The notes: a model not told the origin generated them from the sequence alone. Shown: positions 2,995-39,100, numbered from the stretch's first letter. The stretch is DNA of 64,000 nt from Escherichia coli (GCF_029227855.1 NZ_CP074356.1); one strand, 5' to 3'. Translations and numbers: made by a program.

Positions 2995-6049
<3,055 letters not shown>

Positions 6050-6064
6050 TTTCTCTATTTTCCT

Positions 6065-6961
6065 TCAGTAACAGCAGTAGCGAATAAAATAAAAAAATAC
6101 CGGAGCGGTGAAAATTAATGAGTCAATCCTGTCAAGGAGTCCGCCATGTCCTGGTAATAGTTTTCCACTATCTTTAACACCAATATCTCGTTTGATGGCT
6201 GACATCACTACATCGCCGCAAAAACCACTAATACCAATTAACAAACCCGCTAATAATGCCTGTAATGTATCTAGCGGTGTCAGCAACGGTCCAATAATCA
6301 GTGACGCAATCATGGTGGTGATTACGCCGCCCATCAGACCTTCCAATGTTTTTCCCGGGCTGACTTTAGGGACCACTTTTCTTCTGCCGCAGGATTTTCC
6401 CCATAAATACTGTGCAATATCGTTTGACTCGGTTAATGCCAAAAGAAATAACACCAGTAACGCCCCGCCCTGGATATTTGTGGTTGGCAACATTAATAAC
6501 CAGGCGGCATGACTCAAGGCGAAAACGGTCATTATCCAGCCACAAAAAATGGCGCTCACGGTATGCAGAAAACCGGAGGGGTCACCCACTAAAACTCGCC
6601 AGGTGGCTAATATCAGAAACCCAGCCAAAGGTATAAATAACAGAAACAGCTCAAAGCAATTAAAACCGATAAGCAAATAGTTAAGAGGAATACCCCAATA
6701 TAACCAACGCGGAAAATGTACAGATATAAGCGTACAATATTCTTTCAATGCCAGAAAACTTATCAGCGCAAAAAACGTCAACGTCATCCAGCGTGGACCT
6801 GAAATCACCATTGAAAAACAAATGACGATGCCCCACCAAGTACGAATACGTAATGTAACTTCATCCCCTTTTCTCTCCGGTAACCGCCATACCAGAAAAC
6901 GGTTTATCAGCGTTGCTAAAATTAACAACGCGAAAAGTGTTGCCAGAGATTTTTCCAGCAT
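6065..6961 (-). CDS. ynbB: CDP-diglyceride synthetase (CdsA)-family integral membrane protein
   Basis: 298-aa polytopic membrane ORF; start ATG overlaps ynbA stop (ATGA). Confidence 0.85.
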   Translation of the reverse strand: MLEKSLATLFALLILATLINRFLVWRLPERKGDEVTLRIRTWWGIVICFSMVISGPRWMTLTFFALISFLALKEYCTLISVHFPRWLYWGIPLNYLLIGFNCFELFLLFIPLAGFLILATWRVLVGDPSGFLHTVSAIFCGWIMTVFALSHAAWLLMLPTTNIQGGALLVLFLLALTESNDIAQYLWGKSCGRRKVVPKVSPGKTLEGLMGGVITTMIASLIIGPLLTPLDTLQALLAGLLIGISGFCGDVVMSAIKRDIGVKDSGKLLPGHGGLLDRIDSLIFTAPVFFYFIRYCCY

Positions 6962-27952: not shown

Positions 27953-29452
27953 TTAATACCGTACACACACCGATTTAGTTTCACACCAACCGTCCAGCCA
28001 GTCCGGGCCAAAATCACGGCCTGTTCCTGACTGCTTCATCCCACCAAACGGTAAGTTAGCGTCAATTAAGGTATGACTGTTTACCCACACCGTACCAGCC
28101 TGTAAGCGATCGCTATATTCCAGAGCCCGGGAGAGATTTTGCGTCCAGACGCTGGCAGTTAAGCCATATTCCGTGTCGTTTGCCAGTTGTAACGCCTCTT
28201 CTCCGTCTGCTACTCGCACCAGGTTAACCACCGGACCAAACACCTCTTCACGAGTTAAGCGCAATTTAGCATCGGGATTTACCACCAGCGTTGGCGCAAC
28301 ATAATACCCCTCTCCGGCTGGTCCATTCGACCCGCGAATCAGCTCTGCTTGCTGTGCCTGCGCATCGTCAAGGAATGAACGCACTTTGTCGCAGTGCGCA
28401 CGAGAAACCAAAGGGTTAATCTGTGCAACAGGTGACATCCCCGGTCCCACTTGCAACGATTTTACCGCCTGCTCAAATCCACTAACCATCGTGTCAAACA
28501 ACGGCGCTTCAATATAAATTCGCGAACTGGCGGCGCATACTTGTCCCTGATTCAGGAAGCTTCCGGTCATCAAGCCTTCAATAACCCATTGCGGATCAGC
28601 ATCTTTTAATACAATTGCCGGGTTTTTACCGCCCAGTTCCAGCGTTACACGCGTTAAGCGATCAGCAGCAGTTCTGGCAATACCTTTTCCCGTCGCGGTT
28701 GAACCGGTAAAACTGATTTTCGCAACATGAGGATGTGACGTCAGGGCCGCGCCGCATACAGCACCGGCCCCGGTGACGACATTAAAAACGCCATCAGGGA
28801 TACCAGCCTCGCTGGCCAGTTCCGCCACGCGCAACATCGTCAGTGGCGTGGTTTCCGAAGGCTTAATCACGATTGAACAGCCTGCTGCCAGTGCTGGCAT
28901 CACCTTCCACATGCCAATCATCAACGGAAAGTTCCATGGCACAATTCCCGCTACCACGCCAACCGGCTCTTTACGCGTCCAGGCCTGATAACGCGCCCCC
29001 TGGGGTAAGGGAATCGACAAGTCCAGCGTTTTACCCGCGATTTTGGTCGTTAACCCGGCGGTATAACGCATCCAGTTCAGCGTACAGCCAACTTCAAAAG
29101 CACGGGAAATGGCAATTGACTTGCCTTGCTCCAGGGTTTCCAGTTGCGCCAGCTCCTCACTGTGCAGCTCAACCAGATCGGCAAAACGTAGCAGGATACG
29201 TTCACGCTCTGCAGGTAATCGCCCGGCCCAGCGACGCGAGACGAAGGCGCGCCATGCAGACATGACTGCGTTATCTACATCCGCTTCGTTGGCATCAGCA
29301 GTTGACGCAATTTCTTGCCCGGTTGCTGGATCAAAGATCGCTAACCGTTTTTCACTTTGTGCGGGGCCAGGACGACCATCAATATAAAGACCGTGTTGAC
29401 GATCGAGAAACTGTTGGACCTGGCTTAATACTGCTACATGCGGCTCTGTCAT
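27953..29452 (-). CDS. feaB: Phenylacetaldehyde dehydrogenase
   Basis: 499-aa aldehyde dehydrogenase (catalytic Cys region [10 protein letters not shown]; LELGGKNP). Confidence 0.92.
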
Positions 29453-29504
29453 CACTTTTCCTTATTATTTACCCAGTGTGATTTCAGTGTACGCAGCGAC
29501 AAGA

Positions 29505-29600
29505 AAAGTCACTTTTTTCGCTGTGACATTCGCTTTGTCAGCTGTGACAAGCTCCGCAAATCGTGACAATAACCGCTTATGTCTCTATGCCTGACAAGAC
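29505..29600. promoter_or_regulatory. Cluster of TGACA-N8-AAA-like direct repeats in the feaB / feaR divergent region (candidate FeaR sites)
   Basis: Repeated gTGACAa / cTGACAa elements at about 29521, 29541, 29561, 29590, several followed 8 nt later by AAA. Confidence 0.4.
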
Positions 29601-29687
29601 TTATTTCCTATAGTCAGGCTCATTAGCTTCGTTTATTGCAACACAAATGCAACAATAAAAATACATTTCACAGAGCGAAAACGTGCC

Positions 29688-30593
29688 ATGAACCCCGCAG
29701 TGGATAATGAGTTTCAGCAATGGCTTTCCCAAATCAATCAGGTATGCGGAAATTTTACCGGACGCCTGCTGACTGAGCGTTACACGGGTGTACTGGATAC
29801 GCATTTTGCCAAAGGACTAAAGCTGAGTACCGTGACAACCAACGGGGTGAATTTATCCCGCACCTGGCAGGAAATAAAAGGCAGCGACGATGCCTGGTTT
29901 TACACCGTTTTTCAGCTTAGTGGTCAGGCAATAATGGAGCAGGATGAGCGTCAGGTGCAGATTGGCGCTGGCGATATTACGTTACTCGATGCCTCACGCC
30001 CCTGTTCGCTTTACTGGCAGGAGTCTTCTAAACAGATTTCATTACTTTTACCACGCACTCTGCTGGAACAATATTTTCCCCATCAAAAACCTGTCTGCGC
30101 AGAAAGACTGGACGCTGACTTACCCATGGTGCAACTCAGTCATCGCCTGTTACAGGAGAGCATGAATAATCCGGCACTTTCTGAAACAGAAAGTGAAGCT
30201 GCGCTACAGGCGATGGTGTGTCTGCTTCGCCCAGTACTTCATCAGCGGGAATCTGTCCAACCTCGCCGTGAACGTCAGTTTCAAAAAGTGGTTACGTTGA
30301 TAGACGATAATATTCGCGAAGAGATATTACGCCCGGAGTGGATAGCCGGAGAGACAGGTATGTCAGTACGTAGTTTGTACCGAATGTTTGCCGATAAAGG
30401 TTTGGTGGTCGCGCAATATATTCGTAACCGTCGTCTCGATTTTTGTGCTGATGCGATTCGCCATGCCGCAGATGATGAAAAACTGGCAGGTATTGGCTTT
30501 CATTGGGGATTTTCCGATCAGAGTCATTTTTCAACGGTATTTAAGCAACGCTTTGGGATGACGCCAGGCGAGTATCGACGTAAATTCCGCTAA
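29688..30593 (+). CDS. feaR: AraC-family transcriptional activator of tynA and feaB
   Basis: 301-aa ORF with C-terminal AraC-type HTH. Confidence 0.9.
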   Translation: MNPAVDNEFQQWLSQINQVCGNFTGRLLTERYTGVLDTHFAKGLKLSTVTTNGVNLSRTWQEIKGSDDAWFYTVFQLSGQAIMEQDERQVQIGAGDITLLDASRPCSLYWQESSKQISLLLPRTLLEQYFPHQKPVCAERLDADLPMVQLSHRLLQESMNNPALSETESEAALQAMVCLLRPVLHQRESVQPRRERQFQKVVTLIDDNIREEILRPEWIAGETGMSVRSLYRMFADKGLVVAQYIRNRRLDFCADAIRHAADDEKLAGIGFHWGFSDQSHFSTVFKQRFGMTPGEYRRKFR

Positions 30594-30628
30594 CTAATTC
30601 GCGTTGCATGTACAGCAACGCGAATTAG
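30594..30628. other. 14-bp perfect inverted repeat directly after the feaR stop codon
   Basis: ctaattcgcgttgc-atgtaca-gcaacgcgaattag; no clear U-tract on either side. Confidence 0.5.
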
Positions 30629-30764
30629 TTAAAACAGATATTTGACTATGCATTTTTCAGGGCGAAAGGCAATTTGACAGGAATTTTTGAATATTCACCT
30701 TGTTTCCGGAAAATAGAATAATCGCCTTCTCCTGTAGCGTTATCCCGATATTGCGGTTTTGCTA

Positions 30765-31091
30765 TTAAAATTTTCGCACCCATTTACCGTTTATCCCTTG
30801 TACATATTCCCCCGGTTTAGCCCGAGCTACGAGCTTTTGCCCGGCGAGTTTCGCGATATCATCTACCGAGACATTATTTTGCTTTGCCAGTTGTTGGTAA
30901 CTCGCTTTACGTTCGGCATTAATGTCGTTTACTAATTTCTCTGTTTCAGCATCTGTTTTCAGCGCAACCAGATAACCATAAAATGTTTCCCCTACCCGCC
31001 CCTGAGTTCTGGCTTCATCCAGAGTCAATGCCATTACATTGCTGCTTACAAGCCCAACAAGAAACGCACAAAGAAGTAATGTTTTCTTCAT
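30765..31091 (-). CDS. ydbL: Periplasmic protein YdbL
   Basis: 108 aa from MKKTLLLCAFLVGLVSSNVMA (signal peptide); the track ORF is N-terminally extended. Confidence 0.85.
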   Translation of the reverse strand: MKKTLLLCAFLVGLVSSNVMALTLDEARTQGRVGETFYGYLVALKTDAETEKLVNDINAERKASYQQLAKQNNVSVDDIAKLAGQKLVARAKPGEYVQGINGKWVRKF

Positions 31092-31098
31092 CATCGCC

Positions 31099-31284
31099 TC
31101 AGAAAAGATCGCTACGAGTCTCAAGCAGCTCTTCGACATCTTTGTCTGCCTTGATGATGATCTCATGCTCAATTTTAACGTTCATATTGATAGTGATCGG
31201 TTCCTTAGGTGCAGCGACTTCAATGCGAGGCGTACAGCCAACCAGCATAAAAGATGACGTCAACGCAGCCAGTAAAATTTTCAT
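31099..31284 (-). CDS. ynbE: Small lipoprotein YnbE
   Basis: 61-aa ORF with lipobox MLVGC; start overlaps ydbH stop. Confidence 0.85.
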   Translation of the reverse strand: MKILLAALTSSFMLVGCTPRIEVAAPKEPITINMNVKIEHEIIIKADKDVEELLETRSDLF

Positions 31285-33920
31285 TGTTTTTCCTCACACT
31301 CTTTTCCTTGCGGACAGTCATTTCCCGGCAGACGTGCGTTCTGCTCCAACCATGCCTGGAGATTATCGCCAAAGCGTAAACTGCGCCACAGCGTAAAAAT
31401 ATTCTCTTCATGATGGTAATTAAGGTTTACCGTACCGCTTTTACCATCAACGCGACTGGTACCTGTAATGTTGGCCTGCATGGTTAATAAACCGAGATTA
31501 TCTAAATTAATATTTGTCGATGAACGGCTAATTTCCATATAGCGCAACCAGTTAATTGCTGAACCCGCAGTCATATTGTCTTTCACCACCGCATCTGCGG
31601 TGTCTTTATCCAGCCGCAAGGTCATTGGCCCGCTATTTGCCAGCCAGCCATCTTTCACTATCCATTTTTCGTTGTTTAGCCATAACGGCAATGCACCACT
31701 AAATGCCCCGGACATGGCGAATTGTTTCGGATTGACGGCGCTAACCAGTTCGCTGGATGAGAGATTATTCAGCCGCAACAGCGCCGGGTCATGTTGCGGC
31801 ATACGTAATTGTTTCATCAGCACGTTACCGCCTAACACATCGACGCTAACATCAGTCAACAACAATGGTTCTTCTTCTGTCCACGGATAGCGCCCTTGCA
31901 AATCAGCCGTAATATTTTTCGCTGTCACCAGATTAATCACTTCGGCAATTCGCAACGTAACGGGGCCGCGAGTCCCCAGATGCCAGGCTCCATCGGCAAA
32001 ACGGAAAGGCAGGACAAAATCGACACCGTTAACCTGATTATCTGGCATCCAGGCACTACCGCCTTTCAACACACCGTGCCCTCCCGCGCGGAATCCTTGT
32101 TCAGGCGCAGCAGAAAATGCGACCTGAGCATACAGTTCGCCATCGCGTAAGTTCATCTTCCAGTCGGGTGGCACCAGCGGCTGGAATACGGTCAGTGATT
32201 GTTTAGGCCACCAGGCGTTACCGCGCAGGCGAATACCGTCCCAGCGACCATTTACCCGAACCGGGCCAATCTCACCAGCATGTAAATCGCCTTTAAAGAG
32301 GAAATACGTCGGATCGCGCCCATCGACGCTAAATTTTAAGGTTGATGGCGGTAACACACTGCCGCCAGTGAACAGTGTTTGCCCGGCGTCCAGTGACAGC
32401 GCGCCGCTGAAGGAGGGATGCTGTGCGTCACGTCCCCAGACGACGGGCTTGTCGAGAATTAATCGCGGCTTTTCTACCGTCATCGTACCGTATTGTAACT
32501 GGTCGAAACCGGTGGAGAGATCGGTCAGCGTAATCGTGCTGTCATGCCACTCACCCTTTCCTGCGACATCCCAGGTGGCATTCATCGGTGTAAAACTGCC
32601 TTTTCCCCAGTAGCGCCACTGCCAGCGGCCAGCGTCAGGGAGAAAATCATTCGCCAGTCCATCCATATGCAGCACGAAATCGCCCAGTTCATTTTCATGC
32701 GCCTGCAAAATGGCCTGCAAACGTCCGTCAACACCACGTTGGGTGACTTTTACACCCGCTAAAGGCCAGCGGATTTCATCGATGTCCAGCGAATCGATGA
32801 CTCTTCCCTTCGAACGTAATAACGCACCTGGCTCAAAGGCCAACGTTGGGTCAGTCAGACTTCCGCTTAGCTGCGCAGGTAAACGGGCATATAAAATGAG
32901 GTCCGCCTGTTTCGCTTCACCGGTCAGTTGCAGAGGCAGCTGGCTGTTATCCATGCTTAATTTTCCTGGGCCAAAATTAAGCACCGCGTTGCCCTTACCC
33001 GCTTGCCCCTGGGTCAGCACACTCAGTCGTCCGCTGACCAGAGCGTTCTCAAGCCCTGCCTGCCAGTTGTCGACTTTAACACCCAGTCGGCCACTCAAAG
33101 GAAAACCTGCATACGGCCAGCTCCAGCGACCATCGCTTACGGTCAATTGTTGGCGAGTAATTTGCCACGGCAAATCGAGCAACGGATCGCCGTTATCCCG
33201 TGCCAGCACAATCAATTGCCCGCTATTTTCCTGCCAGTCCAGCTCGGCATCCACCAGTGAAGGCTCCTGCGGCAAGTTTAACGTCGCAGTAGCATGACCA
33301 CTTACAGGAAGTCCATCCGGCACGAGCGGCATAGTAAATTCCCCCACCAGTTTTACCGGTGGCTGATTTTCAAACGCGGCGACATCCAGTTCGCTGACTG
33401 TAAGTTGTTGCCCTTTAAGCTGGCCTTGAAATTTAACTTTTTCGCCCTGATAACGCAGTTGCTGGATATCAGAGGTTAACGCGAGAGAGAGTTTTCCCTG
33501 CCACTCCTGCCAGGGAGAAAAAATCAGTTTATCGATATTGATCCAGGTGTTAGGCAACATGGCCTGCCACTGCGCGAGGGTTTTTGGAGCGGCAGGCGAT
33601 TGCTCCGTCTGCGGCAATTTCGCCAGACAAGCAGAATCAAGTTCTACCGTGCCGACGTTCAATAACCAGCGGCTCGGATGTGAAAGGCTGGCGTTGGTGA
33701 TATGCGCAAGCTGACAATCTCCCACCAGATAACGGAGATCGGGAATGATTAAACCTTTACGCGTAATACGTGGGCTTTCATCTAATGCAATACGTGTCCC
33801 GAGCGGTAGCCAGATGCCCGCCAGCGTGGGAACCCACAAGCCGAGCGTCATCAGCAGCGTCAACGGCACAAGAATAATCAGTAATAACAGCGCGAGAACG
33901 GCTTTATATTTACCCAGCAT
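31281..33920 (-). CDS. ydbH: AsmA-like large envelope protein YdbH
   Basis: 879-aa ORF with N-terminal membrane anchor (MLGKYKAVLALLLLIILVPLTLLMTLGLWVP). Confidence 0.88.
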   Translation of the reverse strand: MLGKYKAVLALLLLIILVPLTLLMTLGLWVPTLAGIWLPLGTRIALDESPRITRKGLIIPDLRYLVGDCQLAHITNASLSHPSRWLLNVGTVELDSACLAKLPQTEQSPAAPKTLAQWQAMLPNTWINIDKLIFSPWQEWQGKLSLALTSDIQQLRYQGEKVKFQGQLKGQQLTVSELDVAAFENQPPVKLVGEFTMPLVPDGLPVSGHATATLNLPQEPSLVDAELDWQENSGQLIVLARDNGDPLLDLPWQITRQQLTVSDGRWSWPYAGFPLSGRLGVKVDNWQAGLENALVSGRLSVLTQGQAGKGNAVLNFGPGKLSMDNSQLPLQLTGEAKQADLILYARLPAQLSGSLTDPTLAFEPGALLRSKGRVIDSLDIDEIRWPLAGVKVTQRGVDGRLQAILQAHENELGDFVLHMDGLANDFLPDAGRWQWRYWGKGSFTPMNATWDVAGKGEWHDSTITLTDLSTGFDQLQYGTMTVEKPRLILDKPVVWGRDAQHPSFSGALSLDAGQTLFTGGSVLPPSTLKFSVDGRDPTYFLFKGDLHAGEIGPVRVNGRWDGIRLRGNAWWPKQSLTVFQPLVPPDWKMNLRDGELYAQVAFSAAPEQGFRAGGHGVLKGGSAWMPDNQVNGVDFVLPFRFADGAWHLGTRGPVTLRIAEVINLVTAKNITADLQGRYPWTEEEPLLLTDVSVDVLGGNVLMKQLRMPQHDPALLRLNNLSSSELVSAVNPKQFAMSGAFSGALPLWLNNEKWIVKDGWLANSGPMTLRLDKDTADAVVKDNMTAGSAINWLRYMEISRSSTNINLDNLGLLTMQANITGTSRVDGKSGTVNLNYHHEENIFTLWRSLRFGDNLQAWLEQNARLPGNDCPQGKECEEKQ

Positions 33921-34127
33921 GGGTAGTTAATATCCTGATTTAGCGAAAAATTAAGCATTCAATACGGGTATTGTGGCATGTTTAACCGTTCAGTTGAAGG
34001 TTGCGCCTACACTAAGCATAGTTGTTGATGAATTTTTCAATATCGCCATAGCTTTCAATTATATTTGAAATTTTGTAAAATATTTTTAGTAGCTTAAATG
34101 TGATTCAACATCACTGGAGAAAGTCTT

Positions 34128-35117
34128 ATGAAACTCGCCGTTTATAGCACAAAACAGTACGACAAGAAGTACCTGCAACAGGTGAACGAGTCCTTTGGCT
34201 TTGAGCTGGAATTTTTTGACTTTCTGCTGACGGAAAAAACCGCTAAAACTGCCAATGGCTGCGAAGCGGTATGTATTTTCGTAAACGATGACGGCAGCCG
34301 CCCGGTGCTGGAAGAGCTGAAAAAGCACGGCGTTAAATATATCGCCCTGCGCTGTGCCGGTTTTAATAACGTCGACCTTGACGCGGCAAAAGAACTGGGG
34401 CTGAAAGTAGTCCGTGTTCCAGCCTATGATCCAGAAGCCGTTGCTGAACACGCCATCGGTATGATGATGACGCTGAACCGCCGTATTCATCGCGCATATC
34501 AGCGTACTCGTGACGCCAACTTCTCTTTGGAAGGTCTGACCGGCTTTACTATGTATGGCAAAACGGCAGGCGTTATCGGTACCGGTAAAATCGGTGTGGC
34601 GATGCTGCGCATTCTGAAAGGTTTTGGTATGCGTCTGCTGGCGTTCGATCCGTATCCAAGTGCGGCGGCGCTGGAACTCGGTGTGGAGTATGTCGATCTG
34701 CCAACCCTGTTCTCTGAATCAGACGTTATCTCTCTGCACTGCCCGCTGACACCGGAAAACTACCATCTGTTGAACGAAGCCGCCTTCGATCAGATGAAAA
34801 ATGGCGTGATGATCGTCAATACCAGTCGCGGTGCATTGATTGATTCTCAGGCGGCAATTGAAGCGCTGAAAAATCAGAAAATTGGTTCGTTGGGTATGGA
34901 CGTGTATGAGAACGAACGCGATCTGTTCTTTGAAGACAAATCCAACGACGTGATCCAGGATGACGTATTCCGTCGTCTGTCTGCCTGCCACAACGTGCTG
35001 TTTACCGGGCACCAGGCATTCCTGACAGCAGAAGCACTGACCAGTATTTCTCAGACTACGCTGCAAAACTTAAGCAATCTGGAAAAAGGCGAAACCTGCC
35101 CGAACGAACTGGTTTAA
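34128..35117 (+). CDS. ldhA: Fermentative D-lactate dehydrogenase (NAD-dependent)
   Basis: 329-aa D-isomer 2-hydroxyacid dehydrogenase with GVIGTGKIG NAD-binding motif. Confidence 0.93.
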   Translation: MKLAVYSTKQYDKKYLQQVNESFGFELEFFDFLLTEKTAKTANGCEAVCIFVNDDGSRPVLEELKKHGVKYIALRCAGFNNVDLDAAKELGLKVVRVPAYDPEAVAEHAIGMMMTLNRRIHRAYQRTRDANFSLEGLTGFTMYGKTAGVIGTGKIGVAMLRILKGFGMRLLAFDPYPSAAALELGVEYVDLPTLFSESDVISLHCPLTPENYHLLNEAAFDQMKNGVMIVNTSRGALIDSQAAIEALKNQKIGSLGMDVYENERDLFFEDKSNDVIQDDVFRRLSACHNVLFTGHQAFLTAEALTSISQTTLQNLSNLEKGETCPNELV

Positions 35118-35227
35118 TCTTGCCGCTCCCCTGCATTCCAGGGGAGCTGATTCAGATAATCCCCAATGACCTTTCATCCTCTATTCTTAAAATAGTCCTG
35201 AGTCAGAAACTGTAATTGAGAACCACA

Positions 35228-35650
35228 ATGAAGAAAGTAGCCGCGTTTGTTGCGCTAAGCCTGCTGATGGCGGGATGTGTAAGTAATGACAAAATTGCTG
35301 TAACCCCAGAACAGCTACAGCATCATCGCTTTGTGCTGGAAAGCGTAAACGGTAAGCCCGTGACCAGCGATAAAAATCCGCCAGAAATCAGCTTTGGTGA
35401 AAAGATGATGATTTCCGGCAGCATGTGTAACCGCTTTAGCGGTGAAGGCAAACTGTCTAATGGTGAACTGATAGCCAAAGGGCTGGCAATGACCCGTATG
35501 ATGTGCGCTAACCCGCAGCTTAATGAACTCGATAACACCATTAGCGAAATGCTGAAAGAAGGTGCACAAGTGGATCTGACCGCGAACCAGTTAACGCTGG
35601 CGACCGCGAAACAGACATTAACTTATAAGCTGGCGGATTTAATGAATTAA
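35228..35650 (+). CDS. hslJ: Heat-shock lipoprotein HslJ
   Basis: 140 aa from MKKVAAFVALSLLMAGC (lipobox). Confidence 0.88.
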   Translation: MKKVAAFVALSLLMAGCVSNDKIAVTPEQLQHHRFVLESVNGKPVTSDKNPPEISFGEKMMISGSMCNRFSGEGKLSNGELIAKGLAMTRMMCANPQLNELDNTISEMLKEGAQVDLTANQLTLATAKQTLTYKLADLMN

Positions 35651-35913
35651 TAGCTGCCACAGCTCCCGGCGGCAAGTGACTGTTCACTACAGCGTTTGCC
35701 GTTGGGTAATGCACACATCCCAATCGCCGTACCATCCAGTTGACGGGCAACAGAAAGCGAACCGCCGATCATTGCACAATTTGCTTCTCCACTACTGGAC
35801 ATCGACGCTTTTAAACCTGGCGCTACGTGCGCCGCAGTCGCCTGCTGAACAGGTTCACTACTACACGCCGACAATAATAAAGCGGCACACCCTACCCAAA
35901 ACGCTGCTCGCAT
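35647..35913 (-). CDS. ydbJ: Small lipoprotein YdbJ
   Basis: 88-aa ORF with lipobox LLSAC. Confidence 0.8.
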   Translation of the reverse strand: MRAAFWVGCAALLLSACSSEPVQQATAAHVAPGLKASMSSSGEANCAMIGGSLSVARQLDGTAIGMCALPNGKRCSEQSLAAGSCGSY

Positions 35914-36186
35914 CTTTTCTTCCTCTGATCTTCAAGCCAAACGACACCGCCATAAATAATAGGCAGCACAGAGGGCGGCGTCGAGAGCTATCCTGCGCGT
36001 TGCCCCGCATTTTTACTTTTTTATGGCTATTTTTTTGCCCTCTGTTTGATCAAAACATTCATTACGCTGATGAGGGGGACACAAAAGCGAAAATGCAGAA
36101 GAAAGCCATTTGCTAAAATTGAAGGATTACTACTGGGCGCGCAGCAATTTCGTGCGCCCCTCATTTGCGCAATGTAAGGGTGTCAT

Positions 36187-39100
36187 ATGATTACTATTGA
36201 CGGTAATGGCGCGGTTGCTTCGGTGGCGTTTCGCACCAGTGAAGTTATCGCCATCTACCCTATTACCCCCAGTTCCACGATGGCAGAACAGGCTGATGCC
36301 TGGGCCGGAAACGGCTTGAAGAACGTTTGGGGAGACACACCACGCGTGGTTGAAATGCAGTCGGAAGCGGGTGCTATCGCTACCGTGCATGGCGCTTTGC
36401 AGACGGGTGCCCTTTCAACATCGTTTACGTCATCGCAGGGTTTGCTGCTGATGATCCCGACGCTGTACAAACTGGCAGGCGAACTCACACCGTTTGTCCT
36501 GCATGTAGCGGCACGTACCGTTGCCACACATGCACTCTCTATTTTTGGCGATCATTCCGACGTCATGGCGGTGCGCCAGACGGGTTGCGCGATGTTGTGT
36601 GCGGCAAACGTCCAGGAAGCGCAAGACTTTGCTCTCATTTCGCACATCGCGACGCTGAAAAGCCGCGTGCCATTTATTCATTTCTTTGATGGTTTCCGCA
36701 CGTCCCACGAAATCAATAAAATTGTCCCGTTGGCCGATGACACGATTCTTGAACTGATGCCGCAGGCCGAAATTGATGCTCATCGCGCCCGGGCGCTCAA
36801 CCCGGAACATCCGGTGATCCGCGGTACGTCCGCCAATCCTGACACTTATTTCCAGTCTCGCGAAGCCACCAACCCCTGGTACAACGCGGTCTATGACCAT
36901 GTTGAACAGGCGATGAATGATTTCGCTGCCGCGACAGGTCGTCAGTATCAGCCGTTTGAGTATTACGGGCATCCGCAAGCGGAACGGGTGATTATCCTGA
37001 TGGGCTCTGCCATTGGCACATGTGAAGAAGTGGTTGATGAATTGCTGACCCGTGGCGAAAAAGTCGGCGTGCTGAAAGTTCGCCTGTACCGCCCCTTCTC
37101 CGCCAAACACTTGCTGCAAGCTCTGCCGGGATCCGTGCGCAACGTGGCGGTACTGGACAGAACCAAAGAACCCGGTGCCCAGGCAGAACCGCTCTATCTG
37201 GATGTGATGACTGCACTGGCAGAAGCCTTTAATAATGGCGAGCGCGAAACCCTGCCCCGTGTCATTGGTGGGCGCTATGGTCTTTCATCCAAAGAATTTG
37301 GCCCGGACTGTGTACTGGCGGTATTTGCCGAGCTCAACGCGGCTAAACCGAAAGCGCGCTTTACGGTTGGTATTTACGATGATGTGACCAATCTGTCACT
37401 GCCGTTGCCGGAAAACACCCTGCCAAACTCGGCGAAACTGGAAGCCTTGTTTTATGGCCTTGGTAGTGATGGCAGCGTTTCCGCGACCAAAAACAATATC
37501 AAGATTATCGGTAATTCCACGCCGTGGTACGCACAGGGCTATTTTGTTTACGACTCCAAAAAGGCGGGCGGCCTGACAGTTTCTCACCTTCGCGTGAGCG
37601 AACAGCCGATTCGTTCCGCTTATCTCATTTCCCAGGCTGATTTTGTTGGCTGCCACCAGTTGCAGTTTATCGACAAATATCAGATGGTTGAGCGTTTAAA
37701 ACCTGGCGGCATTTTCCTGCTCAACACGCCGTACAGCGCAGATGAAGTGTGGTCGCGCTTGCCGCAGGAAGTTCAGGCCGTGCTAAACCAGAAAACAGCG
37801 CGCTTCTATGTGATTAACGCAGCGAAAATCGCCCGCGAATGTGGCCTGGCGGCCCGTATTAATACCGTCATGCAGATGGCTTTTTTCCATCTGACGCAAA
37901 TTCTGCCTGGCGATAGCGCCCTCGCAGAATTGCAGGGTGCGATTGCCAAAAGTTACAGTAGCAAAGGTCAGGATCTGGTGGAGCGCAACTGGCAGGCTCT
38001 GGCGCTGGCGCGTGAATCCGTAGAAGAAGTTCCGTTGCAGCCGGTTAATCCGCACAGCGCCAATCGACCGCCTGTGGTTTCCGATGCCGCTCCTGATTTC
38101 GTGAAAACCGTTACCGCGGCGATGCTCGCCGGGCTTGGTGATGCCCTCCCCGTTTCGGCGCTGCCGCCAGACGGCACCTGGCCGATGGGCACCACGCGCT
38201 GGGAAAAACGCAATATCGCCGAAGAGATCCCCATCTGGAAAGAGGAACTCTGTACCCAATGTAACCACTGCGTCGCCGCTTGCCCACACTCAGCTATTCG
38301 CGCAAAAGTGGTACCGCCTGAAGCGATGGAAAACGCCCCTGCCAGCCTGCATTCGCTGGATGTGAAATCGCGTGATATGCGCGGGCAGAAATATGTCTTG
38401 CAGGTGGCACCGGAAGATTGCACCGGCTGTAACCTGTGCGTCGAAGTTTGCCCGGCGAAAGACCGTCAGAATCCAGAGATTAAAGCCATCAATATGATGT
38501 CGCGCCTGGAACATGTCGAAGAAGAAAAAATCAATTACGATTTCTTCCTCAACCTGCCAGAAATCGACCGTAGCAAACTGGAACGTATTGATATTCGTAC
38601 ATCGCAGCTGATTACACCGCTGTTTGAATATTCCGGTGCTTGCTCCGGTTGTGGCGAGACGCCGTATATTAAATTGCTGACTCAGCTCTATGGCGACCGG
38701 ATGTTGATCGCTAACGCCACCGGCTGTTCTTCAATTTATGGCGGTAACCTGCCCTCTACACCGTATACTACCGATGCCAACGGTCGTGGACCGGCATGGG
38801 CGAACTCGCTGTTTGAAGATAACGCCGAATTTGGCCTTGGTTTCCGCCTGACAGTCGATCAACACCGTGTCCGCGTGCTGCGTCTGCTGGATCAATTTGC
38901 CGATAAAATCCCGGCGGAATTACTGACTGCGTTGAAATCAGACGCCACGCCAGAGGTTCGTCGAGAACAGGTCGCAGCTTTACGCCAGCAACTCAACGAT
39001 GTTGCCGAAGCACATGAACTGATGCGTGACGCAGATGCACTGGTGGAAAAATCAATCTGGCTGATTGGTGGCGACGGCTGGGCTTACGATATCGGCTTTG

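Follow-up and report, generated by a model that had tools for sequence, protein, structure and literature searches.

The route of phospholipids to the Gram-negative outer membrane was long a gap in knowledge, and three redundant bridges are candidates for it, YdbH-YnbE among them. A locus encoding these two proteins and the small protein YdbL lies within the 64,000 nucleotides of Escherichia coli DNA analysed here (hereafter the window), and it raises the question of whether the three genes form a working envelope module and whether there is anything new about it. The locus is an intact, ordinary E. coli ydbH-ynbE-ydbL operon for an inter-membrane protein bridge that has already been characterised. 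This agrees with an earlier reading of the same DNA, made from the sequence alone, which had called the arrangement known rather than novel, a view borne out by published K-12 work on the genetics, contacts and coupling of these proteins. In our judgement it is very probable that YdbH and YnbE form a bridge thought to carry phospholipids, that YdbL limits the stacking of YnbE, and that the layout of the intact operon sets the dosage of its products.

The three genes and their products

The open reading frames and the raw sequence place three co-directional genes on the minus strand, and the interval 30765-33920 is bounded exactly by the ydbL stop and the ydbH start. The coding features, with the evidence for each in brackets, are as follows.

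31281..33920, minus strand: ydbH, 879 aa, ATG start, TGA stop (open reading frame, Pfam, NCBIfam, RefSeq)
33810..33917, minus strand: codons for YdbH residues 2-37, the single N-terminal hydrophobic helix or membrane anchor (hydropathy and AF2 model)
31099..31284, minus strand: ynbE, 61-aa precursor of a 45-aa mature outer-membrane lipoprotein (Pfam, RefSeq, K-12 identity)
31234..31245, minus strand: codons for the YnbE lipobox L14-V-G-C17, Cys17 being the lipidated first mature residue (pattern search)
31171..31197, minus strand: codons for YnbE I30-I38 (ITINMNVKI), an alternating polar/non-polar strand that would extend the YdbH groove (sequence, conservation, fusion model)
31102..31152, minus strand: codons for YnbE K45-F61, the C-terminal helix and tail, YdbL-binding (fusion-model helix 48-56; published NMR and native MS)
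30765..31091, minus strand: ydbL, 108-aa precursor of an 87-aa mature periplasmic protein, DUF1318 (Pfam, PDB match)
31029..31091, minus strand: codons for the YdbL signal peptide, residues 1-21, MKKTLLLCAFLVGLVSSNVMA (hydrophobic N-terminus; solved mature chain aligns from L22)

The gene lengths and coordinates given in the sequence-only reading were accurate to the base; the strand, which it left unstated, is minus. The window is 100% identical at the nucleotide level to the chromosome of E. coli strain JNEC-KY178, and the same three coding sequences are annotated by RefSeq in that strain and in K-12. The flanking genes are also the same in both, with ldhA divergent and upstream of ydbH, and feaR convergent with ydbL. 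Moreover, the locus was matched in 5417 of 5426 complete E. coli genomes. The three-gene call is not a chance result, because the Pfam E-values are 2e-290, 3e-16 and 2e-31 for YdbH, YnbE and YdbL, respectively, and the dN/dS values relative to K-12 are 0.043, 0 and 0.10.

YdbH matches the Pfam family PF11739 (YdbH-like) with 967 bits against a cut-off of 26.3, its residues 14-862 covering profile positions 1-892 of 893, and the NCBIfam equivalog NF007971 with 1400 bits against a cut-off of 824. When hydropathy was averaged over 19-residue windows (Kyte-Doolittle, threshold 1.6), windows of at least 1.6 started at residues 1-22 only, and the maximum past residue 45 was 1.04. The AF2 model (pLDDT 87.8) begins with helices 2-24 and 26-37, after which it contains about 55 strands and no other element, so that both approaches agree with the single N-terminal anchor proposed earlier for this protein. 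The designation of YdbH as AsmA-like fared less uniformly, as it rests on the fold and on the literature, whereas the sequence comparisons are weak or negative. Specifically, the match to Pfam DUF748 (E 0.053, 12 bits) lies below the cut-off of 50, and aligning the YdbH profile with hhalign to single K-12 sequences, which limits sensitivity, gave probabilities of 48% for AsmA (E 1.8e-4), 10.6% for TamB (N-terminal helix only) and 0.2% for YhdP. A PDB sequence search with YdbH and YnbE found no solved relatives.

YnbE was described in the sequence-only reading as a 61-aa lipoprotein, and this holds: it matches PF13617 (YnbE-like lipoprotein) with 59.3 bits against a cut-off of 25.8 and carries the lipobox LVGC, in which Cys17 is followed by Thr18 at position +2. 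According to the sorting rule of the Lol pathway, outer-membrane lipoproteins lack Asp at +2, and the outer-membrane location of K-12 YnbE has been shown by fractionation. The lipobox with its Cys is kept in all ten YnbE homologues examined. The segment ITINMNVKI is identical in K-12, and the motif I/V-T/V-I-N-M/I-N/H-V occurs in all ten homologues. In a model of YdbH fused through a linker to YnbE, residues 30-37 of YnbE formed a strand, albeit with a low pLDDT of about 57-59 and with the partner strand not visible in the output, and residues 48-56 formed a helix.

YdbL, whose start is the second of two adjacent ATGs, matches PF07027 with 108.7 bits against a cut-off of 27, and no NCBIfam model matched either YdbL or YnbE. 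In the PDB, residues 22-108 match 28oj_A ('Probable chaperone-like protein YdbL') with an E-value of 6e-52 and identity at 86 of the 87 aligned positions; this entry is the crystal structure of mature YdbL. The signal-peptide-like N-terminus and a mature chain from residue 22 bear out the earlier description of a small periplasmic third protein. We regard a RelB/ParD match for YdbL (E 0.036, 14 bits against a cut-off of 60) as noise.

The probable YdbH-YnbE bridge and the role of YdbL

In the mechanism that we favour, YdbH would sit in the inner membrane by its one N-terminal helix and reach into the periplasm as a long continuous beta-sheet groove. The YnbE strand I30-I38 would add to the last YdbH strand by beta-strand augmentation, which would lengthen the hydrophobic groove and tie it to the outer membrane. 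The bridge could then let phospholipid acyl chains slide between the membranes, redundantly with TamB and YhdP. YdbL on the C-terminal helix of YnbE would limit amyloid-like self-stacking, so that YnbE can dock on YdbH, and excess YdbL would titrate YnbE away. Lastly, dosage would follow from the gene layout, with ynbE translated only by those ribosomes that end ydbH at the ATGA and reinitiate via an internal GAGGA, and with ydbL starting 7 nt on.

Much of this rests on K-12. YdbH's uninterrupted hydrophobic groove has been described from AlphaFold models, and AlphaFold-Multimer models of YdbH-YnbE are backed by in vivo cross-linking and proline mutagenesis, proline substitutions in the YnbE strand abolishing function (PMC11126948). 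YnbE is needed, and it cross-links to the C-terminal residues W791 and W857 of YdbH (PMC11126948), in line with the proposal of the sequence-only reading that the lipoprotein is the partner of YdbH. YnbE multimerisation has likewise been shown for K-12. YnbE is also required in Pseudomonas aeruginosa, though YdbH there keeps some activity without it. The combined deletion of tamB, yhdP and ydbH is lethal in K-12 (PMC8593681), a result that is carried to the window allele by 99.2% identity. Prediction of the complex structure and synthetic-lethality tests with other AsmA-family genes, both named in the sequence-only reading as ways to check it, had been published for the K-12 orthologues, whose identity is 99-100%, the former in PMC11126948 and the latter, with tamB and yhdP, in PMC8593681. 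A lack of interaction or co-expression, which that reading had regarded as speaking against it, is contradicted, since YdbH and YnbE interact and their translation is coupled (PMC6728339).

We infer the travel of phospholipids along the groove, its direction and the number of YnbE copies in the bridge. The authors of the YdbH-YnbE work themselves treat lipid transfer as a hypothesis, and YdbH modelled with one YnbE spans about 180 Å, shorter than the periplasm of about 250 Å. YdbH-YnbE might instead be a structural tether or help in assembling, for instance, outer-membrane proteins or lipoproteins, with the defects in lipid homeostasis arising indirectly. A role as assembly factor was reportedly first proposed for TamAB. 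We consider this explanation unlikely. When the YdbH model was compared with the PDB by Foldseek, the closest solved fold was the bridge-like lipid-transfer protein LPD-3 (E 2.6e-6, probability 0.99), but with a TM-score of 0.14 and an identity of about 6-8%. In addition, the YnbE strand prolongs the hydrophobic groove with its non-polar side, and it is to lipid homeostasis that the redundancy with TamB and YhdP has been mapped. Cryo-EM and lipidomics papers on TAM also report phospholipid transport (PMC12800296, PMC13119328).

Within the bridge model, YdbL is more than a bystander. The literature identifies it as a dosage-sensitive, chaperone-like binder of the C-terminal YnbE helix: NMR and native MS showed binding of the YnbE peptide E39-F61 to YdbL (bioRxiv 10.64898/2026.03.16.712125), and in cells lacking both tamB and yhdP an excess of YdbL is lethal. 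All YnbE-binding residues listed from the published NMR data (R28, E60, R61, L68, K70, N72, A83 and L87) are present in the YdbL of the window. The authors drew a functional analogy with CsgC and CsgA, in which an amyloid subunit is restrained by a periplasmic chaperone, much as YdbL may hold back runaway stacking of YnbE. This is an analogy only and not a matter of membership, as the proteins are unrelated and YdbL binds the helix beside the strand, not an amyloid core.

The other bridge systems show both shared and divergent features. In TamA-TamB, too, an AsmA-like bridge anchored in the inner membrane has its own outer-membrane partner, whose gene lies next to that of the bridge and overlaps it by 4 nt, and TamB is functionally redundant with YdbH. 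However, the TamB partner is an Omp85 beta-barrel encoded upstream, whereas that of YdbH is a 45-residue lipoprotein encoded downstream; TamB has 1259 aa, lacks a YdbL-like factor and shows negligible similarity to the YdbH profile. YhdP, likewise AsmA-like, redundant and anchored at its N-terminus, is another putative phospholipid bridge. It differs in its length of 1266 aa, in the absence of detectable similarity to the YdbH profile, and in that it is thought to reach the outer membrane via its own C-terminal hydrophobic helices. Fusion of the YhdP C-terminus to P. aeruginosa YdbH made YnbE dispensable. The eukaryotic bridge-like lipid-transfer proteins of the repeating beta-groove superfamily (VPS13, ATG2 and BLTP1/LPD-3) have the identity and TM-score given above, and they differ widely from YdbH in size and partners and act between organelles, not across the periplasm.

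Coupling at the gene junctions

Three features at the junctions bear on the question of whether the gene layout sets the dosage.

31281..31284, minus strand: ATGA, the ynbE start over the ydbH stop, a termination-reinitiation site (raw sequence, homologues, K-12 experiment)
31291..31295, minus strand: GAGGA, the Shine-Dalgarno sequence of ynbE, within the ydbH coding sequence and 6 nt before the ynbE ATG (junction sequence GTGTGAGGAAAAACAATGAAA, identical in K-12)
31092..31100, minus strand: the ynbE-ydbL junction, with a GAGG (31100-31097) overlapping the ynbE TGA and a 7-nt gap to the ydbL ATG (sequence TTCTGAGGCGATGATGAAG)

The ynbE ATG (31284-31282) overlaps the ydbH TGA (31283-31281) in the reading ...CA ATGA AA..., which amounts to a 4-nt overlap, and the junction is identical to that of K-12 over the 51-nt stretch compared. 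The coupling by ATGA that had been proposed from the overlap has been measured in K-12, where ynbE translation strictly depends on ydbH translation reaching the overlap (PMC6728339). In a reporter, removal of the ynbE Shine-Dalgarno sequence abolished reinitiation (PMC6728339).

The overlap could, in principle, reflect mere genome compaction, in which case translation of ynbE would rely on its own Shine-Dalgarno sequence, independently of ydbH, and the layout would be uninformative on partnership and stoichiometry. The strong GAGGA 6 nt before the ynbE ATG would fit this explanation, as would two homologue loci without overlap, in which the gap is 0 or 1 nt. Huber et al. claimed, on the basis of a supplementary in silico fold, that a stable local RNA structure blocks independent initiation at ynbE (PMC6728339). 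In our hands, the fold of the -99 to +30 junction (-27.4 kcal/mol) was not more stable than those of shuffled sequences (mean -31.8, z +1.23), which leaves nothing obvious to block de novo initiation. Nevertheless, compaction is very improbable and already largely refuted by data, as a premature stop in ydbH brought downstream translation in a reporter carrying positions -99 to +30 of the junction to extremely low or undetectable levels (PMC6728339), YnbE levels drop in K-12 when ydbH is absent, and in all ten loci having ynbE the two genes overlap or lie no more than 1 nt apart.

We also consider how the present copy differs from K-12. The genes, their order and lengths, the overlap and the junction sequences are all shared with K-12 YdbH-YnbE-YdbL (b1381-b1383; Kumar, Davis and Ruiz, PNAS 2024; De'Ath et al., bioRxiv 2026). 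The locus is 97.7% identical to that of K-12 (81 nucleotide differences in 3534 nt). At the protein level, YnbE is 100% identical, YdbL matches at 107 of 108 residues and YdbH at 872 of 879, and the differences are allelic only: V181A, A196T, S356T, T361A, I493V, V496G and K803N in YdbH, and A55N in YdbL. None of them affects a position for which a role has been reported. That these eight substitutions mark a decaying or functionally altered copy deserves almost no credence, since frameshifts and internal stops are absent from all three genes, the dN/dS values are low, the changes miss the gain-of-function sites 303, 305, 308 and 456, the cross-link sites W791 and W857 and the YdbL-YnbE contact residues, and the locus is present in nearly all complete genomes, as detailed above. 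The locus is a normal allele. With the genetics, contacts, coupling and part of the structure already published, it adds nothing to the phospholipid-transport question, but it is useful as a positive control, in that a real module was recognised from raw sequence and rated correctly.

Distant homologues and flanking signals

We compared 11 distant homologue loci with 26-49% identity. A ynbE-like gene directly follows ydbH in 10 of them, and the 4-nt overlap of the window recurs in five (L003, L004, L009, L012 and L013). ydbL is present in two of the 11 and absent from eight, the contig of the remaining locus ending too early. The earlier description of a conserved arrangement therefore applies to the ydbH-ynbE pair and not to ydbL. 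In the two loci with ydbL (L011 and L013), the ynbE-ydbL gaps measure 9 and 12 nt and a Shine-Dalgarno sequence is present. The YnbE tail reads ...(D or G)LF in the three lineages with ydbL and is divergent or extended in the seven ynbE loci without it, so that a C-terminus in ...LF is limited to loci carrying ydbL.

In Pasteurellaceae-like genomes, the stop codon of a gene for a polytopic membrane protein of about 270 aa (Pfam PF27206, HI_1241) overlaps the ydbH start or lies within 1 nt of it. Searches of HI_1241 against the PDB, NCBIfam and the locally searched Pfam gave no match, and we found no mention of it in the literature. At this site in the window, ldhA lies divergently upstream of ydbH in place of such a gene. 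A tblastn search of the window for HI_1241 homologues gave two weak matches at 4481-4729 (E 0.08 and 0.16), which were judged to be chance because they fall inside a 585-aa open reading frame without long hydrophobic stretches. We tentatively suggest, as a possibility that we rate well below even, that ydbH-ynbE is the sole conserved core, that YdbL is a lineage-restricted accessory co-varying with the YnbE C-terminus, and that HI_1241, as lipid loader or scramblase, could be the inner-membrane partner still missing from a bridge-like lipid transporter of bacteria. The patchy ydbL, the co-varying YnbE tail and the membrane-protein gene coupled to ydbH could guide a search for accessory and inner-membrane partners.

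Two candidate transcription signals flank the operon.

34032..34058, minus strand: candidate sigma-70 promoter of ydbH to ydbL, TTGAAA, 15 nt, AAAAAT, in the divergent ldhA-ydbH spacer (published prediction)
30591..30631, no strand assigned: 17-bp perfect hairpin between the convergent feaR and ydbL (RNA fold)

The promoter motif is listed for K-12 as a prediction (PMC3946193) and is unchanged in the window, where the ldhA-ydbH spacer differs from that of K-12 at 1 of 207 nt. A generic promoter and terminator scan of 30400-34300 returned counts equal to those of shuffled sequences and nothing in the ldhA-ydbH spacer, and it missed the published motif, which has a 15-nt spacing. An Rfam scan of 29000-36500 with E up to 1 found no RNA family. 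The hairpin between feaR and ydbL was absent from the terminator scan because no U-run follows its stem. It folds at -30.9 kcal/mol on the minus strand (z -8.4) and -25.9 kcal/mol on the plus strand (z -7.5), and its stem is kept by a compensatory C/G double change relative to K-12; judged from these sequence features, it is likely a shared transcript-end structure of the operon.

Gene layout, conservation and translational coupling

Three genes pointing in the same direction on the minus strand were found between feaR and ldhA, both in the six-frame ORF list and in the raw sequence:

29688-30593, plus strand: feaR, convergent neighbour
30765-31091, minus strand: ydbL, 108 codons; two ATGs stand side by side, and the second, at 31091, is the annotated start
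31099-31284, minus strand: ynbE, 61-codon ORF
31281-33920, minus strand: ydbH, 879-codon ORF
34128-35117, plus strand: ldhA, divergent neighbour

The sequence-only reading had described ORFs for 879 and 61 aa joined by an ATGA overlap and followed by a third gene. All of these were seen in the ORF list and junction sequence, and the span of 30765-33920 is exact, although the strand had been omitted. On the coding strand, the ydbH/ynbE junction reads GAG GAA AAA CAA TGA / ATG AAA; the ynbE ATG and the ydbH TGA have 3 bases in common, giving the 4-nt overlap. The ynbE/ydbL junction (TTC TGA GGCG ATG ATG AAG) has a 7-nt gap, with a GAGG overlapping the ynbE stop.

The proposed translational coupling of ydbH and ynbE is borne out by published work on the E. 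coli junction, which was among five overlaps directly tested: translation downstream was abolished when ydbH carried a premature stop, and reinitiation strictly required the SD (PMC6728339). The proposed occluding RNA structure was not reproduced, as the fold of the junction from -99 to +30 was no stabler than shuffles (z +1.23). Inside ydbH, a strong SD (GAGGA) lies 6 nt before the ynbE ATG. By contrast, the only SD-like element upstream of the ydbH ATG (33921-33945, minus strand) is an AGGA at the poor spacing of 12 nt, which suggests that the first gene, ydbH, may initiate weakly. The tamA and tamB genes of K-12 (6113-6116 of the extracted locus) likewise overlap by 4 nt. Of three redundant bridge systems, two thus link the genes for the bridge and its outer-membrane partner through a stop/start overlap, with the order of the two genes reversed between TamA-TamB and YdbH-YnbE.

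A megablast search with 30500-34200 found the segment in 5417 of 5426 complete E. coli genomes; nine had no match to the locus, and 5 of the 5420 matching places sit on records labelled plasmid. One genome, JNEC-KY178, matched at 100%, and its RefSeq annotation reads feaR, ydbL, ynbE, ydbH, ldhA. The layout in K-12 MG1655 (b1381-b1383) is identical, with 81 differences across the 3534-nt locus. Seven of the 879 YdbH residues are changed relative to K-12 (V181A, A196T, S356T, T361A, I493V, V496G, K803N), YnbE is identical and YdbL carries one change, A55N. Every residue named in functional papers on the K-12 orthologues is kept. With dN/dS values of 0.043 for ydbH, 0 for ynbE and 0.096 for ydbL (Nei-Gojobori), the three genes are intact and under purifying selection. 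Codon 55 of YdbL (30927-30929), Asn here and Ala in both K-12 and the crystallised protein, falls within the long helix A48-N72 and outside the reported YnbE-contact residues.

Predicted structure of YdbH and its partnership with YnbE

In Pfam, all three proteins matched their families well over the cut-offs: YdbH, practically over its full length, YdbH-like PF11739 (E 2e-290), YnbE the YnbE-like lipoprotein family PF13617 (E 3e-16) and YdbL DUF1318 PF07027 (E 2e-31). YdbH also satisfied the NCBIfam YdbH equivalog criterion. The single N-terminal anchor attributed to YdbH is backed by hydropathy, with no other hydrophobic stretch past residue 40. YdbL, with its Sec-type signal peptide and 108 codons, agrees with the small periplasmic protein that had been described. 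Residues 22-108 of YdbL align with residues 2-88 of PDB 28oj_A, an 88-residue chain of mature YdbL titled 'Probable chaperone-like protein YdbL'; PDB sequence searches gave no solved relative of YdbH or of YnbE.

The description of YdbH as AsmA-like was not demonstrated from sequence by Pfam and hhalign. Its sole additional Pfam match, DUF748, was under the cut-off (E 0.053), and hhalign alignment of a profile built from 38 YdbH homologues with the K-12 paralogues gave probabilities of 48% for AsmA (E 1.8e-4), 11% for TamB, over the N-terminal helix region only, and 0.2% for YhdP. The family is modest, with 598 representative clusters at E <= 1e-3 in an exhaustive HMMER search. An AlphaFold2 model built on HMMER homologues was confident (pLDDT 87.8) and comprised a helix at 2-37, a run of some 55 strands and, at the C-terminus, another helix (841-862). 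Its top Foldseek PDB match was the bridge-like lipid-transfer protein LPD-3/BLTP1 (E 2.6e-6, probability 0.99), followed by ApoB100 and LptD; TM-scores were low, as anticipated for long twisted rods. The predicted fold is therefore supportive of an AsmA-like YdbH, but not discriminating; for the AsmA-like/RBG assignment, the main basis is published work (Pfam clan CL0401, chorein-N homology).

By the established sorting rule of the Lol system, lipoproteins without Asp at +2 of the lipobox go to the outer membrane. YnbE has the lipobox LVGC (Cys17) with Thr at +2, which together with PF13617 agrees with its description as a lipoprotein and, by the Lol rule, points to the outer membrane. K-12 YnbE indeed fractionates with the outer membrane (PMC11126948). 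That the lipoprotein is a required partner of YdbH is likewise upheld: K-12 YnbE, unlike YdbL, is essential in a tamB yhdP background, and cross-links form both from YdbH, at W791 and W857, to YnbE and from YnbE, at positions flanking I30-I38, to YdbH (PMC11126948). YnbE multimers appear as ladders, and double prolines in its strand abolish both function and YdbH contact (PMC11126948). The P. aeruginosa YdbH also needs YnbE, the two genes being adjacent there (PMC12447247). Our model of YdbH fused to mature YnbE through a 25-residue linker, based on a partly paired alignment, contained a YnbE strand (30-37) and helix (48-56), the elements reported from AlphaFold-Multimer, at a pLDDT of only ~57-59 and with no pairing partner visible. 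The system is already known in detail, to the point that one component has a crystal structure and the gene overlap has been tested directly; passage of lipid through the bridge, its direction and the YnbE copy number are unproven in the field.

Gene neighbourhoods of YdbH homologues

The arrangement had been called conserved. Among 11 YdbH homologue loci (26-49% identity) this holds for ydbH-ynbE, with a PF13617 gene directly downstream of ydbH in 10, but not for ydbL, which gene calls and tblastn placed in two loci and found missing from eight; the contig of the remaining locus, L003, ends too early. Of the ten ydbH/ynbE junctions, five overlap by 4 nt and three, as called, by 8-17 nt; the other two have gaps of 0-1 nt. 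The exception is L007, from an AT-rich genome, where a 973-aa ydbH homologue (3001-6133) is separated from a convergent fur gene downstream by a 210-nt gap that contains no ORF. Either that genome has its ynbE at another place, or the longer YdbH works without YnbE.

YnbE ends in ...DLF or ...GLF in the window, in K-12 and in loci L011 and L013, all with ydbL, whereas its tail is divergent or extended in the seven ynbE-carrying loci without ydbL; in L003 it is ...QIF, the contig stopping before any ydbL is visible. In this small sample, without phylogenetic correction, the ...[D/G]LF end was found only where ydbL is present. YdbL binds a YnbE E39-F61 peptide, as shown by NMR and native MS, an excess of YdbL is lethal to tamB yhdP cells if ydbH and ynbE are not raised as well, and DegP degrades free YdbL (bioRxiv 10.64898/2026.03.16.712125). 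The tail pattern fits this published interface, with the same reservation as to sample and phylogeny. Within this small and uncorrected sample, many lineages appear able to dispense with ydbL, whose presence varies together with the YnbE tail; this mildly new pattern comes from the homologue loci, outside the window.

Directly upstream of ydbH, four loci encode a polytopic membrane protein of 270-274 aa (Pfam PF27206, HI_1241) with ~7-9 hydrophobic segments:

L004, 2177-3001: HI_1241-family gene
L005, 178-990: HI_1241-family gene
L008, 131-949: HI_1241-family gene
L009, 2177-3001: HI_1241-family gene

The junction with ydbH is a TAATG stop/start overlap in three of the four and a 1-nt gap in the other. 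Judged from these junctions, the gene is apparently translationally coupled to ydbH in Pasteurellaceae-like genomes, a mildly new observation outside the window. Searches of the PDB, local Pfam, NCBIfam and the literature gave no match for the family; its product is possibly an inner-membrane partner of YdbH.

Regulation and transcript ends

Generic promoter and terminator scans around the operon gave nothing beyond chance, and Rfam no RNA family at the operon. On the minus strand, 34058-34032 carries TTGAAA-15-AAAAAT, the published promoter motif of ydbH--ydbL (PMC3946193). A 17-bp perfect hairpin (30591-30631), located between convergent feaR and ydbL, begins within the feaR stop codon and lies 135 nt beyond ydbL. 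It has no U-run, so that we can only infer that it serves both genes as a transcript end. The hairpin is very stable in RNA folding (z ~ -8), and its stem is kept through a compensatory double substitution, reading TTCGCG...CGCGAA in the window versus TTGGCG...CGCCAA in K-12.
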